Assembly (NCBI RefSeq): GCF_024502345.1
Contig: NZ_JALDNN010000001.1
DNA length: 64,000 bases
Reading direction: 5' to 3' (one strand)
DNA from: Escherichia coli
GTDB taxonomy: Bacteria > Pseudomonadota > Gammaproteobacteria > Enterobacterales > Enterobacteriaceae
Below are positions 11,757-23,529 of this stretch, piece after piece. Under the pieces are notes generated by a model, which had not been told where the DNA came from, made no database searches, and saw nothing but the letters and a program-made list of their open reading frames with translations. Positions within the stretch are counted from its first letter, which is position 1; each line of letters starts with the position of its first letter. A program made the position numbers and the translations under genes.

Positions 11757-12186
11757 TGCCGTCACGGTGCTGAAAACTAACCCCGATATGCTGCGGATAT
11801 TCGTGGATAACGGGAGTATTGCCTCCACACTGGCGGCGTCGTTGTCATTCGAAAAGCGTTACACGCTCAATGTGATTGTGACCGACTTTACCGGTGATTT
11901 TGACCTGCTCATCGTGCCGGTGCTGGCGTGGCTGCGGGAAAATCAGCCCGACATCATGACCACCGACGCAGGCCAGAAAAAGGGCTTCACGTTTTATGCA
12001 GACATCAACAATGACAGCAGCTTTGATATCAGCATCAGCCTGATGCTGACCGAGCGCACGCTGGTCAGTGAGGTGGACGGCGCGCTGCATGTGAAGAATA
12101 TCCCGGAACCTCTGCCGCCGGAGCCGGTCACCCGCCCGATGGAGCTGTATATCAATGGCGAACTGGTGAGCAAGTGGGATGAATGA
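11719..12186 (+). CDS. R: P2 gpR tail completion protein (155 aa)
   Basis: 155 aa, position after lysis genes. Confidence 0.85.
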   Translation: MLKPDSLRRALTDAVTVLKTNPDMLRIFVDNGSIASTLAASLSFEKRYTLNVIVTDFTGDFDLLIVPVLAWLRENQPDIMTTDAGQKKGFTFYADINNDSSFDISISLMLTERTLVSEVDGALHVKNIPEPLPPEPVTRPMELYINGELVSKWDE

Positions 12187-12637
12187 GTTTAAGCGTTTTG
12201 AAGACCGGCTGACCGGACTTATTGAATCGCTGTCACCGTCAGGGCGTCGGCGACTGGCGGTAGATATTGCGAAGAAACTGCGCCAGCGCCAGCAGCAGCG
12301 AATTAAATTACAAAAAGCCCCGGATGGTACGCCGTATGTACCGAGAAAAAACCAGCCAGTGCGAAATAAGAAAGGCCGGATAAAGCGGGAAATGTTTGCG
12401 AAATTACGCACAAACCGATTTATGAAAGCAACAGGTAGCGAGAGTGCGGCTGTGGTGGAGTTTGCCAGCGGAGTACAACGAATTGCGAGAGTACATCAAT
12501 TAGGGCTTAGGGATAAGCCGGGGCGTAATAGTGCTGTGGTGGAATATCCTGTTCGTGAGTTATTAGGTTTTGACAAGGAATCTATACAATTGATAGAAAA
12601 GGAGTTATTAGTGATTCTATCGAAAGATGTTATATGA
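12179..12637 (+). CDS. S: P2 gpS tail completion protein (152 aa), 3' part AT-rich/mosaic
   Basis: MNEFKRFEDRLTGLIESLSPSGRRRL N-terminus; composition turns AT-rich in 3' third. Confidence 0.85.
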   Translation: MNEFKRFEDRLTGLIESLSPSGRRRLAVDIAKKLRQRQQQRIKLQKAPDGTPYVPRKNQPVRNKKGRIKREMFAKLRTNRFMKATGSESAAVVEFASGVQRIARVHQLGLRDKPGRNSAVVEYPVRELLGFDKESIQLIEKELLVILSKDVI

Positions 12638-13389
12638 GATGGGTGTTTGTGGATAAAAAATTTTCCATTTTGAGAAAAAGAGTAAAGCATTCTCAAAAGA
12701 AAGTTATGGATTGTATTATTGCTGACCATAATGCTGATGTATGTGTGTTATGCGGGAGTTCTGACGATATTACTCGTGAGCACATTATTCCTCAGTGGGC
12801 CTTTGAGTCAAATGCTGAAAAACTTTTAATTAATAAAAAGAATAATCAGTCAACTCATTACATCAAAGCCACTGTACCAGCATGCAGAGTGTGCAATTCT
12901 GATTTGCTGGGAGCGTTTGAGTATAACCTGAAGAAATTTCTTACGGAAAAGAGGGGCGATGAGTTAACAGATTATGAATATGATTGCATCATATGGTGGT
13001 TGCAATACATGGGCTTTAAGTTGCAATTAATGGATTTACGGACCCGCTTTCTCAGGTATAAAGGGGGGGATTATATCCCTTTCCTTGCAAACTTCCCGGT
13101 TGCAATGTTTTGGGGGAATGTCGATACGACACCGGAGGATGTCTTCAGGATTATAAGAAAATCGCGACGCAATCTGATGTCGAAATGGAAGGATAAAAAA
13201 CATAATTCTTTGATGGTTTTTGAAACATCAAACAAGAGTTTTCATTTCTTTCATAAGGTTGATGAATTTATTTTTATTGAAATGCCTCAGGTTAAGAAGG
13301 CGTTTTTCTTCTTTTTTAATAAAGAATTTGACAGCCATGATTTAGCTCATGAGGAGTGTATGAAGATTATAGAGAAGTGCTACAACTAA
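12634..13389 (+). CDS. Accessory protein with HNH-type nuclease motif (251 aa), inserted between S and V
   Basis: CVLCGSSDDITREHIIPQWAF ... ATVPACRVCNSDL resembles a CxxC...H...N...CxxC HNH core; strongly AT-rich; ATG overlaps S stop (ATGA). Confidence 0.6.
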   Translation: MRWVFVDKKFSILRKRVKHSQKKVMDCIIADHNADVCVLCGSSDDITREHIIPQWAFESNAEKLLINKKNNQSTHYIKATVPACRVCNSDLLGAFEYNLKKFLTEKRGDELTDYEYDCIIWWLQYMGFKLQLMDLRTRFLRYKGGDYIPFLANFPVAMFWGNVDTTPEDVFRIIRKSRRNLMSKWKDKKHNSLMVFETSNKSFHFFHKVDEFIFIEMPQVKKAFFFFFNKEFDSHDLAHEECMKIIEKCYN

Positions 13390-13466
13390 TATTTATTATG
13401 TTGTGTCACGGCTGACAGAGTCCTCCATGATTGCTGCTGGTATCGTCCGGCGGCATCCTTCCCGTC

Positions 13467-18214: not shown

Positions 18215-18742
18215 ATGCAGCATTTGATAAATATAATGGCAGGTAATCCAAAAACGGTTGAACAATATCAATTGACAAAGGACTTTGATGTTGTCTGGTT
18301 TTTTTCAGAAGATGGTAAGAACTGGTACGAAGAACAAAAGTATTTTGCTGATGACACGATAAAAATAGCGTACGACAAAGATAATATTATCCGCTATGTG
18401 GAAAAGGATGTGACAGCTATCAGACCGGATGGATTAAGTGTTGTTGAAGTGCCGGATATTACTGCTAACCGACGGGCGGACATTTCAGGGAACTGGATGT
18501 TTAAGGACGGTACAGTGATTAAACGAATTTATACGGCAGAGGAATTGCAGCAGCAGGCAGAAAATCGGAAAGCCAGACTTCTTGCAGATGCTGAATCCGT
18601 GATTTTGCCGCTGGAGCGCGCTGTCAGGCTGAATATGGCAACAGATGAGGAGCGCAGTCGACTGGAGGCATGGGAACGCTACAGTGTTCTGGTCAGTCGT
18701 GTGGATCCTGCAAATCCTGAATGGCCGGAAATGCCGCAATAA
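18215..18742 (+). CDS. G: P2 gpG tail fiber assembly chaperone (175 aa)
   Basis: 175 aa, immediately after H. Confidence 0.85.
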
Positions 18743-18864
18743 GTTGTATGAGCTCTGGTGTGAGCTTACATATCTATGGCACAGAGTAAAGCCTAATCTG
18801 AGAGTCCGCTCTGTGCCAGGAGGGGACGTTGCTCACCTATAAATATCCCAGCAAAACGGAACAC

Positions 18865-19673
18865 TCATCTTTGCAATCTTTTTATGTTTATATAAAGTTC
18901 CTCAATCAGCTCTTCCGAATTTTGACTGTAATGCAATGCCCGATGGCAATTCGGGCATAATGCAACACAATTGCTTATGGTGTCAGCACCAGATAAAGAA
19001 AGAGGTATCACATGATACACTTCGAGATATGGGATATCGCCATTTATTAAGAACGGTGTATTTTCACTACATCTTTCACAAACGCCCTTACTCCCTTGCA
19101 ATACACAAGATTTAACAGCAAGATCCCGAATATAAACCTTCTGAACTCTTTCTAATGTTCCAGTTTTTTATGTCCCTCGGACTCGTTCAAAGGAATTTAT
19201 ATTAGCTTACTGACCATTTTACTTAGAACACTCTCATCATTAGTGGCTCGAAAAGCACTGATGTATCTCCGTAGATGATAGGTTTCCAAAATTCAGCACT
19301 ATTAACACTAGGAACATTTATCATTACTCGCTCAGTTCTGTTCCCTGATGGTGCATCTTTTTTAGCAGTACTGTTCAAATGAGTCTGATACATACACATT
19401 TTTTGGGAAATATCGGAAGGGTAGTTTCCCACTAAAGAAAATTACATCATCAGGATGTATTTTTCTTTCCGCTATAGATGGTATATGTCTTCCGGTTGAT
19501 GATGAGGCCAAATACACAACGCCTTTGTTTACCCCGGAATCAATAAGTCGTCCAATGATATAATCGATGGCAATATTATAATCTTTGTTTCTATGCGCCA
19601 GTCATCAGGGCTCAAATATCAGGCCATATACCCCATCTTCTTCACCTACTAGGCACTCAACGTTCAGTTCCAT
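18865..19673 (-). pseudogene. mcrA-like HNH endonuclease gene (type IV 5-methylcytosine restriction family), disrupted by several frame changes
   Basis: Pieces in three frames: MELNVECLVGEEDGVYGLIFEP; AHRNKDYNIAIDYIIGRLIDSGVNKGVVYLASSSTGRHIPSIAERKIHPDDV; ...SGNRTERVMINVP...; intact C-terminal HNH core CERC...PYLEVYHVIPLSLSGADTISNCVALCPNCHRALH. These resemble McrA as recalled from memory. Confidence 0.6.
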
Positions 19674-19877
19674 ACCATTGTTATCAAGAGATTGCTTTGT
19701 ATTGCGCGGGAAACGTCTAGTTTGAATTAAGGAATTGTGAGGCGGAAGATGGGATTTAGGAATTTGGTTAGAGTTAGCAATGTTAATAAATGGGCCTAAT
19801 TTCACTTTAAATCAAATTCCTAAATATTAAAGAAAGCAAGCTGGCCTACATAAACAGCCAGCCTTGGATAATTCAAT

Positions 19878-21692
19878 TCACTTCTTACATAGAATGCTGG
19901 GTTTTACTCCGTACTCAACACATGCACTCAAAAATGTATTTATAAGCCAGATTAGCTGAACAGTATAAGGTTTGGCTGACTGATTTCTCTTGATGATTTC
20001 CACCTCATCGATTAACATTTTTTTTCTTAAAAATGGAGCAGCTAATATTAACTCCCTACTAGTTTTCGGACTCTCATTAATTTTGTCAAGAGCTAACTCA
20101 ATGTCATTCCTGGAAGTGTCAATTGGTCTAATTCTACTAATCTGCGTTTGTAAATATTTTGAAGACCATTCATTATCATATTTATCAAGGTAAAGTTCTT
20201 TTGGTGAATGTAATCTGCCAATATTTTTTAAAGCTTGACTTATAACTTCATGAAATTTACTGGCGCCATAGCTCTCTTTTTTAATATATTTAGAATGAAT
20301 AAACTTTATGGATGGATTTCCTGTCGTGATATCCAGCACAATATGATCGGCCCACTCATCATTCATATCATCACAAATTACAATAGCATCTTTATTTGAA
20401 TAGATATTCTCCACTCGTCTAAATAGCGATCTCACTGGAAATCTTTTAATATTTTCTGGATAAGATTGTTTGTCATCTTTCTCTTTTTCCGATCTGATTG
20501 TTGAAAAATCAAAGCTATCATCAAAAACGGACAGGAAAATATTCAAATTATTTAACATCGTTTTATCTTCAAAACACGAACGACCATGATAGCAATATTG
20601 GGGGGAATCGAAGGTTATAGTGAATGGCTTAAACTTGTTAATATATTTACTAAGCGACATTAACTGAGAACCATTTTCACTAATCATTATACCATCGAGA
20701 TATTTGGATACTATAGTCACAACCTTAGTATTGAATCTCAGACGACATTTGAATTTGAATCTTAAATTGGTTAGCGTTTCACCATCTAAGAAATATGATG
20801 ATTTAAATCCATTGAAAAATTTGTCAAGTTCAACAGAACTTAACGTCACCGTTCCATGAGGCACATTTTTTGTTAGTGTAAAAGTATGGGACGTGCCACG
20901 CACCATATCATCCAACTCGCTAAGATCTATAAAAATAGCTTTTGGCTTGACTTTTTTTGCTAATAATTCACTCAAAGTAATAGGGGAAGAGAAACCTGCC
21001 ATTAGCTTACTTGACAAAGAGGCTGTGTTAGATAATTCATTTACTGTAGCTATTGCCCATGAGCAGAAATTAAAAAAATCCACTTTTTTATCTTTGTAGC
21101 CTATTCGTGAAGTATTTGGTGTTAAAGTAAATATGTCATTTCCTGTCTTGACTCTAAATGTCCCTGGAATTGAACGTCCAGTCGTGTTAGGAGAAAGAAT
21201 GCCACTTAGATTTTTTGCTTCCACTGTTCTATTTCTTATCACTGAATCTGACAGTGACATATTCCTCATGCTAATTTTTTCATACTCAGGATTCAGCCTT
21301 CCATTAAAATTTGAAAATTTATCAAACTCAAAGTATTCTATGAACCTTTCCAACTCGCTTTCAATTGCATCAACATTTTTCTTCGAAATTATTAAAAAAT
21401 CCTGAACCTCCAAGATCATTAGATACGCATACTTGCTTTCTGAAATGCTAGTGCCTTGTAGAAATGAAGGCTCTTCTAGAACTTTAAAAGACACCAAAGA
21501 GTAAGTTAAATTCCCATTATCTACAACAACTTCAGATTTAATTTTATTTATAAGAAAGACACCATCTTTTATCGAGGATATGCTTCTAAATAGATTTTTT
21601 ATTTTATTTCTAGATAAAGGTTTTTTTATCTTAAAAAATTGTGCATTTTTTGATAAAATTAAATCATTGATACTGAAAATATATTTAGTCAC
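19878..21692 (-). CDS. Orphan AT-rich protein of unknown function (604 aa), prophage hotspot cargo
   Basis: Long uninterrupted ORF in very AT-rich DNA; GTG start 8 nt after AAGGA; no Walker A, no YxDD box, no HNH seen by eye; C-terminal segment AIVICDDMNDEWADHIVLD...IKFIHSKY could be a nuclease-like acidic/basic cluster. Confidence 0.6.
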   Translation of the reverse strand: MTKYIFSINDLILSKNAQFFKIKKPLSRNKIKNLFRSISSIKDGVFLINKIKSEVVVDNGNLTYSLVSFKVLEEPSFLQGTSISESKYAYLMILEVQDFLIISKKNVDAIESELERFIEYFEFDKFSNFNGRLNPEYEKISMRNMSLSDSVIRNRTVEAKNLSGILSPNTTGRSIPGTFRVKTGNDIFTLTPNTSRIGYKDKKVDFFNFCSWAIATVNELSNTASLSSKLMAGFSSPITLSELLAKKVKPKAIFIDLSELDDMVRGTSHTFTLTKNVPHGTVTLSSVELDKFFNGFKSSYFLDGETLTNLRFKFKCRLRFNTKVVTIVSKYLDGIMISENGSQLMSLSKYINKFKPFTITFDSPQYCYHGRSCFEDKTMLNNLNIFLSVFDDSFDFSTIRSEKEKDDKQSYPENIKRFPVRSLFRRVENIYSNKDAIVICDDMNDEWADHIVLDITTGNPSIKFIHSKYIKKESYGASKFHEVISQALKNIGRLHSPKELYLDKYDNEWSSKYLQTQISRIRPIDTSRNDIELALDKINESPKTSRELILAAPFLRKKMLIDEVEIIKRNQSAKPYTVQLIWLINTFLSACVEYGVKPSILCKK

Positions 21693-22214
21693 TTTGATGT
21701 CCTTATAATTAACATTTGATTATTCAAGAACAACTAGACAGCACTTCAGAGAAAATCAAATGGGAAATGGAATAGTTTAGATTCAGAAGATTACATTAAC
21801 ACGTAATATATTAAAAGTAATTATCTAAAACAATATTAATTATTGACTCGCGCAGTATTTAACTGCAAAAATTTGATTTAGGTCGTTTTTTTCTTACAAA
21901 GGCCAAGCCGCCAGGCCCGAAATGCCGCCTCTGCCGGTTAGCGCAATTGGGCTGACGCCCCGGGGCACTGGGGAGCCGAAACTTTAAGAAATCCGGAGAA
22001 TTGACCGTTATTTGAAATAAAAATGCCATTGTAACTTTCGTGTTTAGGCATAGAAAAATTTCCTTTTAACAAAACATAGTAATACTAGTAATGCGCCTTG
22101 TGCGGTGATCAAAATTGCGAACTTCCGCTCCTCGCTCAAAGCAGACTGTCAGATTTGATAGCGTTTTGGCTATGTAAATTGTCAGTCGGAAAATGAGTGA
22201 GTACAAACTAGGAC

Positions 22215-22338: not shown

Positions 22339-23529
22339 ATGAGTGACTATCATCACGGCGTGCAGGTGCTGGAGATTAACGACGGCACCCGCGTCATTTC
22401 CACCGTATCCACTGCCATTGTCGGCATGGTCTGTACGGCCAGCGATGCAGATGCGGAAACCTTCCCCCTCAATAAACCGGTGTTGATTACCAATGTGCAG
22501 AGCGCAATTGCAAAGGCCGGTAAAAAAGGCACGCTGGCGGCATCGTTGCAGGCCATCGCTGACCAGTCAAAACCGGTCACCGTTGTCGTGCGCGTGGAAG
22601 ACGGCACCGGTGATGACGAGGAAACGAAACTCGCGCAGACCGTTTCCAATATCATCGGCACCACCGACGAAAACGGTCAGTACACCGGACTGAAAGCCCT
22701 GCTGGCGGCGGAGTCGGTAACCGGTGTTAAACCGCGTATTCTCGGCGTGCCGGGACTGGACACCAAAGAGGTGGCTGTTGCACTGGCATCAGTCTGTCAG
22801 AAGCTGCGCGCTTTCGGGTATATCAGCGCATGGGGCTGTAAAACTATTTCCGAGGTGAAAGCCTACCGCCAGAATTTCAGCCAGCGTGAGTTGATGGTCA
22901 TCTGGCCGGATTACCTCGCATGGGATACGGTCACCAGTACCACCGCCACCGCGTATGCCACCGCCCGTGCGCTGGGTCTGCGCGCTAAAATCGACCAGGA
23001 GCAGGGCTGGCATAAAACACTGTCCAACGTTGGGGTGAACGGTGTTACCGGCATCAGCGCATCTGTATTCTGGGATTTGCAGGAGTCCGGCACCGATGCT
23101 GACCTGCTGAATGAGTCAGGCGTCACAACGCTGATTCGCCGTGACGGTTTCCGCTTCTGGGGTAACCGTACCTGCTCTGATGACCCGCTGTTCCTCTTTG
23201 AAAACTACACCCGCACCGCGCAGGTACTGGCCGACACGATGGCTGAGGCGCACATGTGGGCGGTGGACAAGCCCATCACCGCAACGCTGATTCGCGACAT
23301 CGTTGACGGCATCAATGCCAAATTCCGTGAGCTGAAAACAAACGGTTATATCGTGGATGCGACCTGCTGGTTCAGCGAAGAATCCAACGATGCGGAAACC
23401 CTCAAGGCCGGAAAACTGTATATCGACTATGACTATACACCGGTGCCTCCTCTCGAAAACCTGACCCTGCGCCAGCGTATTACCGATAAATACCTGGCGA
23501 ATCTGGTCACCCCGGTTAACAGCAATTAA
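22339..23529 (+). CDS. FI: P2 gpFI tail sheath protein (396 aa)
   Basis: 396 aa, size and position. Confidence 0.9.
   Translation: MSDYHHGVQVLEINDGTRVISTVSTAIVGMVCTASDADAETFPLNKPVLITNVQSAIAKAGKKGTLAASLQAIADQSKPVTVVVRVEDGTGDDEETKLAQTVSNIIGTTDENGQYTGLKALLAAESVTGVKPRILGVPGLDTKEVAVALASVCQKLRAFGYISAWGCKTISEVKAYRQNFSQRELMVIWPDYLAWDTVTSTTATAYATARALGLRAKIDQEQGWHKTLSNVGVNGVTGISASVFWDLQESGTDADLLNESGVTTLIRRDGFRFWGNRTCSDDPLFLFENYTRTAQVLADTMAEAHMWAVDKPITATLIRDIVDGINAKFRELKTNGYIVDATCWFSEESNDAETLKAGKLYIDYDYTPVPPLENLTLRQRITDKYLANLVTPVNSN

Follow-up and report, generated by a model that had tools for sequence, protein, structure and literature searches.

A candidate stand-alone anti-phage defense gene with a predicted RdgC-like front end and a predicted PD-(D/E)xK-type nuclease domain at the fun(Z) site of a P2-like prophage

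Introduction

[quoted passage not shown] In P2 itself, this site holds fun(Z), of which the P2 record says that it "blocks growth of T5." Phage exclusion has also been linked to a particular protein fold: λ RexA is a phage-exclusion protein with an RdgC-type fold, RdgC and Iml3-Chl4 have this fold as well, the binding of DNA by RdgC and RexA is non-specific, and centromeric DNA is contacted by the Iml3-Chl4 heterodimer (PMC11077077). In addition, the PADLOC collection holds PDC-x models, which represent unpublished candidate systems (PMC11811056). Here, we describe a 604-amino-acid (aa) open reading frame (ORF) at the G-FI site of a P2-like prophage of Escherichia coli (assembly GCF_024502345.1, contig NZ_JALDNN010000001.1). 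The analyzed stretch of 64,000 nucleotides is called the window, and positions are those of the window unless another locus is named. A first-pass annotation, made from the letters of the window alone, had singled out this ORF as an orphan and a candidate single-gene defense or abortive-infection effector. Our analysis favors, with a probability of roughly 60%, a stand-alone anti-phage defense gene that the prophage carries, as a moron, at its fun(Z) hotspot and that encodes a DNA-sensing nuclease.

Results

A 604-codon gene takes the place of fun(Z) in a P2-like prophage

The ORF is surrounded by the tail module of a P2-like prophage, in which V, W, J, I, H, and G are followed by FI, FII, E, T, U, D, and ogr. 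It lies between G and FI on the strand opposite to the tail genes, which is the position and orientation of fun(Z) in P2. The features of the site are:

18215..18742, plus strand: P2 gene G, tail fiber assembly, left border of the hotspot
19822..19866, minus strand: terminator-like hairpin directly 3' of the stop codon, with a 9-bp stem and a U-rich tail (-15.5 kcal/mol, z score -1.8)
19878..21692 (stop included), minus strand: 604-aa ORF with a GTG start, identical to WP_000170427.1, member of PADLOC PDC-S71
21700..21704, minus strand: Shine-Dalgarno AAGGA (tcctt on the plus strand), 7 nt 5' of the GTG, read from the sequence
22339..23529, plus strand: P2 gene FI, which encodes the tail sheath and borders the hotspot on the right

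We ruled out a homolog of Fun(Z) (BLASTP E value 0.095; hhalign probability 0.1%); the ORF is a non-homologous replacement at a known P2 hotspot. The reading frame is uninterrupted over its 604 codons, and RefSeq labels the same coding sequence (CDS), WP_000170427.1, "hypothetical protein." The orthologs from Providencia rettgeri and Erwinia sp. start with a GTG at the identical position and have the same VTKYIF... N terminus. The GC content is 0.33 over 20-22 kb vs. 0.52-0.57 on each side. The first-pass annotation had reported a long intact ORF with a GTG start, an AAGGA ahead of it, and a low GC content that contrasts with the phage backbone; all three observations hold, and we add that the gene, for which no strand had been stated, is on the minus strand. 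The folding energy and z score give modest support to the hairpin as a terminator-like element, and it was absent from the list returned by a consensus terminator scan. A consensus promoter scan upstream of the ORF returned a count no higher than chance.

The gene belongs to a large family catalogued as PDC-S71

When the ORF was compared with the PADLOC models at E≤1, PDC-S71 (hidden Markov model PDLC05077) was the sole model matched. The match (E value 1.1e-218; 725.8 bits) places residues 7-604 on model positions 3-589 of 589. The description of the protein as an orphan was thus wrong: besides this existing model, when 1.84 billion representatives were searched with a profile, 991 clusters (50% identity) passed E≤1e-3 and 371 passed E≤1e-30, almost all of them being full-length (about 590-610 aa) and of one architecture. 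A word-indexed search found 162 relatives, and the 120 that were listed came from Gammaproteobacteria, Bacteroidota, and Campylobacterota, were all unnamed or "hypothetical," and were mostly 588-604 aa long. The first-pass annotation had counted a confident match to an already described defense protein against its own proposal, and half of this applies: a match exists over the full length, but what it matches is a candidate only and not a characterized system.

Other sources of names were less informative. A search of PHROGs returned noise only. Some structural relatives in AFDB carry the tentative names "TIGR04141 family" (among full-length relatives) or "DUF4365"; the NCBIfam TIGR04141 model matched neither the query nor 20 diverse members, and our literature searches on TIGR04141 and DUF6119 turned up nothing about what this family does.

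We also observed a single metagenomic representative (P0131, 1018 aa) with a 430-residue N-terminal extension that contains a Peptidase_S41 domain; it could be a true fusion or a gene-calling artifact.

The gene has no conserved partner, and several relatives lie beside defense genes

We then considered the surroundings of relatives at 35 loci from different species. The gene itself was the sole family common to all loci, and the next commonest family occurred at 6 of the 35, at variable distance. Because no neighbor is conserved in the 35 species, we regard the gene as standing alone. In Aeromonas, for example, it is a solitary insertion between guaA and the gene for an AraC-type regulator.

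Known or candidate defense genes adjoin relatives elsewhere. In an integrative element of Draconibacterium, the relative lies directly upstream of Gabija GajA (OLD-TOPRIM) and GajB (UvrD), and in Providencia it shares an integrase island on the smpB side with PvuRts1I-SRA, HNH_2, and Mrr_cat genes. In other species, relatives adjoin DruH, a SIR2 protein, HEC-06 together with a restriction endonuclease (REase)-like gene, or PDC-M26A. At ∼6 of 17 sampled loci, a large flanking gene matched a defense model; one further such match, to a ClpB-sized AAA protein, is probably a false positive. The hotspot, the PDC-S71 match, the lack of a conserved partner in 35 species, and the defense neighbors of relatives together support the earlier idea of a single-gene defense system, at the level of a candidate.

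The C-terminal region is predicted to form a PD-(D/E)xK nuclease domain

The C-terminal part of the protein comprises two features:

19878..20492 (codons 401-604), minus strand: C-terminal region, with an SEK(G) linker (E402, K403), a predicted PD-(D/E)xK domain, and a helical C-terminal extension
20223..20375 (codons 440-490), minus strand: putative active site, C-D441-D442-x3-E446-W-A-D449 ... H466-x-K468 ... Q486-x2-K489-N490

A cluster of acidic and basic residues had been noticed by eye in the C-terminal third. We confirmed this cluster, and no block of the family is more conserved. In our alignment of 133 sequences (21-43% identity), E402, F424, D442, E446, D449, K468, Q486, K489, N490, and W582 were invariant (133/133), and K403 was present in 132/133.

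A PD-(D/E)xK core follows the order alpha-beta-beta-beta-alpha, in which an Asp opens strand 2 and strand 3 carries the x-K. We observed the predicted order helix 423-431, strand 436-440, strand 450-454, strand 461-467, and helix 477-489. D449 comes directly before strand 450-454 and fits the conserved Asp that opens core strand 2, as mapped by topology and not by superposition; H466-S-K468 is at the end of strand 461-467, and both Q486 and K489 are in helix 477-489. The AlphaFold2 model of the full protein (predicted local distance difference test [pLDDT] 81) contains a restriction-endonuclease-like alpha-beta-beta-beta-alpha-beta core, and its fold matches include the PD-(D/E)xK effectors Can2 and Card1, Cap4-like proteins, and HamA. 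These nuclease-fold matches vanished when only residues 1-398 were modeled; they therefore belong to residues ∼420-604. The structure prediction and fold comparison that the first-pass annotation had proposed as a check gave a predicted nuclease fold at the C terminus. Its suggestion of a degenerate PD-(D/E)xK site gains from the predicted fold, from the invariance of the motif, and from the loss of matches without the C terminus, and in Pfam, NCBIfam, PDB sequences, and a FokI comparison, no link to nucleases at the level of sequence emerged.

A distant relative is encoded on the Rhizobium plasmid NZ_CP072869.1 (locus L048, 2300-4513), with 23% identity over query residues 140-604. It retains the SEK, CDD...E..D, K, and Q..KN residues, and Val replaces the His. 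It comes after the C-terminal region of a superfamily 2 (SF2) helicase and is annotated "RNA helicase"; IS5 and IS66 flank it, and it adjoins a "dsDNA nuclease domain" gene.

An RdgC-like fold is predicted for the N-terminal region

Modeled alone, residues 1-398 reached a pLDDT of 90.7 and a predicted template modeling score (pTM) of 0.85. The predicted N-terminal fold is of the RdgC type and matched RdgC, Iml3, and CENP-L at 6-11% identity; the Pfam RdgC model matched neither the query nor any of the 133 members. Residues 1-225 are basic across the family, with a median isoelectric point of 9.2 and ten conserved K/R positions. Judged from fold and charge, the N-terminal module probably binds DNA. 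It is followed by:

20493..21017 (codons 226-400), minus strand: middle domain, which varies more across the family than any other part and is a second alpha/beta domain, for which no specific fold was matched

We also noted a weak similarity to RnlA, which concerns a generic alpha/beta fold. This similarity bears on whether the protein is a toxic effector of abortive infection, that is, one that a phage protein or a DNA-damage signal would release from auto-inhibition and that would then indiscriminately degrade nucleic acid, possibly RNA rather than DNA, of host and phage alike. This possibility is a sub-variant of the defense interpretation and differs from it in outcome and substrate only. 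In favor are the lack of a conserved antitoxin or partner for this single gene, the Can2, Card1, Cap4-like, and HamA effectors among the fold matches, and the invariant SEK linker (E402, K403), a possible switch where the regulatory half joins the nuclease half. However, stable carriage without an antitoxin would probably need tight auto-inhibition, the RnlA similarity is weak and generic, and the present data fit direct immunity equally; we consider an indiscriminate effector unlikely.

The gene is carried in a low-GC cassette together with a decayed mcrA homolog

The ORF is one part of a larger low-GC unit:

18804..22146, no strand assigned: 3.34-kb low-GC cassette made up of the ORF, the mcrA pseudogene, and a leader, whose ends coincide in three different E. 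coli contexts and a Providencia rettgeri island
about 18865..19690, minus strand: mcrA-like type IV HNH restriction endonuclease pseudogene in four frameshifted pieces

The neighbor of the ORF had been described as decayed, and this was confirmed: it is a frameshifted mcrA homolog. Four short ORFs, downstream on the same strand, match PADLOC mREase_IV at positions 4-29, 61-93, 89-151, and 200-277 of 277, and the DNA is ∼69% identical to E. coli mcrA. RefSeq has a single 51-aa CDS here, "HNH endonuclease signature motif." All 8 E. coli genomes that carry the gene, and Providencia too, have this same decayed copy. A two-gene system with the HNH neighbor was rejected, since the neighbor is a pseudogene, is missing in Erwinia, and no partner is conserved in the 35 species.

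Outside the P2 context, we found the cassette in an E. coli prophage remnant that adjoins paoABCD (L002, 8001-11343), in the E. coli STEC309 island with antirestriction, Ag43, and integrase genes (L008, 7927-11275), and, at 92% nucleotide identity, in a Providencia rettgeri integrase island beside smpB (L044, 7551-10874). The Erwinia ortholog has 2.2 kb in common with the cassette and lacks the mcrA pseudogene. We found no terminal repeats or target duplications at the cassette ends, and an Rfam search of the cassette and its surroundings found no structured RNA.

The company of an mcrA-like type IV pseudogene raises the question of modification-dependent restriction. A type IV-like enzyme of this kind would read a modified base or glucosylated DNA with its N-terminal and middle domains and cut only such DNA with its C terminus. 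Besides the shared cassette, PvuRts1I-SRA, HNH_2, and Mrr_cat are neighbors of the closest non-E. coli relative, and no methyltransferase partner is conserved. Yet the predicted N-terminal fold is that of RdgC, Iml3, and CENP-L and not SRA, YTH/EVE, McrB-N, DUF3578, or another known reader, the ORF has no PADLOC mREase_IV match, and any gene of a defense island would cluster with type IV genes. On balance, restriction confined to modified DNA is an improbable account of the gene.

The spread of the cassette also bears on whether the gene serves defense at all. The protein might be a DNA-transaction protein of mobile elements that hitch-hikes in variable regions, such as a helper of recombination or integration, a homing-type nuclease that would spread the cassette, or an RdgC-like regulator of recombination. 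The RdgC fold is known from a recombination modulator, and the identical ends of the 3.34-kb cassette across unrelated contexts and genera imply that it is mobile as a unit; several relatives are near integrases or insertion sequence (IS) elements, and some are among housekeeping genes. Against this stand the lack of repeats or duplications at the cassette ends, the mere 2.2 kb shared with Erwinia, which implies no fixed element around the gene, and the lack of a conserved partner or site. Furthermore, the P2 position is known for lysogenic-conversion or defense cargo only, and a pipeline based on defense islands chose the family independently. We regard a role outside defense as very unlikely.

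Several further observations concern the cassette and its surroundings. In the paoABCD-linked and STEC309 loci, the gene for a DUF6602 protein, WP_001700313.1, directly adjoins the mcrA end (L002, 6535-7851; L008, 6461-7777); it is missing from the P2 context and may belong to a larger shared block as a further defense-type cargo gene. A GC-rich stretch of ∼90 nt (window 21900-21990) interrupts the AT-rich leader of the ORF; 15 nt of it nearly repeat the 3' terminus of gene G (18723-18737), GGCCGGAAATGCCGC vs. GGCCCGAAATGCCGC. This stretch has no other E. coli copy outside the cassette and is not in the Erwinia ortholog; it may be what remains of a recombination joint formed earlier. In the STEC309 island, ∼3 kb from the cassette and beyond an integrase gene, genes for a dynamin-family protein and a hypothetical protein (L008, 13760-17004) presumably resemble the dynamin-like defense pair of the Eleos/LeoBC-like kind. 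Within the window, a second low-GC patch (0.45) at 12001-13400 (L001, 1-887, minus strand) encodes the "hypothetical protein" WP_047657858.1 just upstream of the baseplate gene V, at a position that we take to be the P2 orf30 site and that may be a further cargo site.

The coding sequence is under purifying selection across genera

The ratio of nonsynonymous to synonymous substitution rates (dN/dS) was 0.20 between the E. coli gene and its Providencia ortholog, 0.06 between E. coli and Erwinia, and 0.08 between Providencia and Erwinia. Given these values of 0.06-0.20, the coding sequence is under purifying selection across genera. The first-pass annotation had argued for selection from the intactness of the gene beside a decayed neighbor. 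Selection is upheld by the comparison between genera; the argument from intactness is not, since intactness within E. coli is uninformative when the DNA of all its 8 copies is 99.9-100% identical.

Discussion

We propose that the basic, RdgC-like N-terminal module would bind DNA, perhaps encircling or clamping it as a dimer, as RdgC does, and that this module and the middle domain would control a C-terminal metal-dependent nuclease of the PD-(D/E)xK type. The nuclease would cut invading DNA, or replicating phage and host DNA, so stopping infection. In this scheme, DNA binding, nuclease activity, the defense phenotype, and DNA rather than RNA as the substrate are what we infer from predicted fold, conservation, and genomic context, as are the trigger and the fate of the cell.

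A more specific and tentative version of this proposal, which we hold to be possible but rather doubtful, is a new class of stand-alone immune nuclease in which an RdgC-like clamp would sense infection-specific DNA and license the D-E-D...H-x-K site. Topology would be the signal, with the protein threaded onto or encircling a DNA form such as a free end, an intermediate of recombination or replication, or linear DNA after injection.

A number of observations weigh against a DNA-sensing defense nuclease. The position of the canonical acid of (D/E)xK is His466 in 118/133 sequences, beside the invariant K468. When the C-terminal profile was compared with the FokI cleavage domain, hhalign, run with a hand-entered FokI sequence, gave a probability of 0.4%. 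Neither the query nor the 133 members matched Pfam, neither the query nor 20 diverse members matched NCBIfam, and PDB sequences were matched neither by the single sequence nor by the full-length or C-terminal profile. (The same Pfam and NCBIfam results agree with the first-pass annotation, which had looked for a P-loop, reverse-transcriptase, HNH, or helicase motif and seen none.) The PDC-S71 label stands for an unpublished candidate and carries no function, fold, or mechanism, and our literature searches found no mention of PDC-S71 or WP_000170427. The defense neighborhood is a sample of loci and not an enrichment statistic, and some relatives, such as those in Aeromonas and Dechloromonas, lie among ordinary genes. 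The gene is also rare, with carriers numbering 8 among the 5,426 complete genomes of E. coli, and a tblastn search of 50,697 deposited phage genomes found no match. A phage-borne origin is unsupported by that search.

Catalysis with His at the acid position is plausible but not assured. Candidate substitute acids are D442 and E446, both invariant and in the preceding loop, E428 in helix 423-431 (Glu in 116/133; Asp or Glu in 119/133), and D/E482 in the following helix (103/133). D442, E446, or D/E482 could supply the missing carboxylate.

If the gene is defensive, a widespread single-gene system would be added to those known, with ∼1,000 clusters at 50% identity in Gammaproteobacteria, Bacteroidota, Campylobacterota, and others, and the PADLOC PDC-S71 label would gain a mechanism at the level of fold. 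The RdgC/RexA fold would also serve phage exclusion in a second way, here coupled to a nuclease. Should the clamp version prove true, this would be the first nuclease-coupled RdgC/RexA/Iml3 fold and would tie λ Rex-type exclusion to widespread defense effectors; a sensor-nuclease with a new DNA-recognition module would offer a simple system for the recognition of non-self DNA without sequence or modification cues. For P2 biology, the ORF is another non-homologous cargo at the fun(Z) hotspot, and how elements swap defense cargo is illustrated by the 3.3-kb cassette, which recurs in P2, two other E. coli islands, and Providencia. Even if not defensive, the proteins would form a large conserved family with a predicted nuclease site.

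By sequence, the ORF is a member of PDC-S71, which it matches over its full length and whose model class is likewise a single gene, and of no other family. Its likeness to P2 Fun(Z) is one of locus and of orientation opposite to the tail operons, and the ORF additionally has its own terminator-like hairpin; Fun(Z) contains a GEKGTGKT P-loop-like motif, whereas the ORF protein has none. Shedu SduA, HamA of Hachiman, FokI, N.BspD6I, and AspBHI resemble it in pairing an N-terminal sensor with a C-terminal PD-(D/E)xK effector, which in our case is predicted. The ORF has no PADLOC matches to the Shedu, Hachiman, or REase models and no Pfam matches. Its motif differs from that of the Shedu/HamA/FokI type, with His in place of the (D/E) of (D/E)xK and the extra invariant residues D442 and E446, and so does its sensor, which is RdgC-like in predicted fold. 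Unlike HamA, which works with the HamB helicase, the ORF has no helicase partner. Its likeness to RdgC, λ RexA, and Iml3-Chl4 is in predicted fold only, at 6-11% identity and with no Pfam RdgC match, and none of the RdgC-fold proteins in PMC11077077 is described with a nuclease domain, in contrast to the one predicted here. The family is already catalogued as a defense candidate, and the gene is hence a good candidate, well placed and amenable to experiment, that will not surprise a specialist. What appears to be new, on the strength of the structural models, is an RdgC-like front end and an H-x-K variant site on a nuclease-based single-gene defense candidate.

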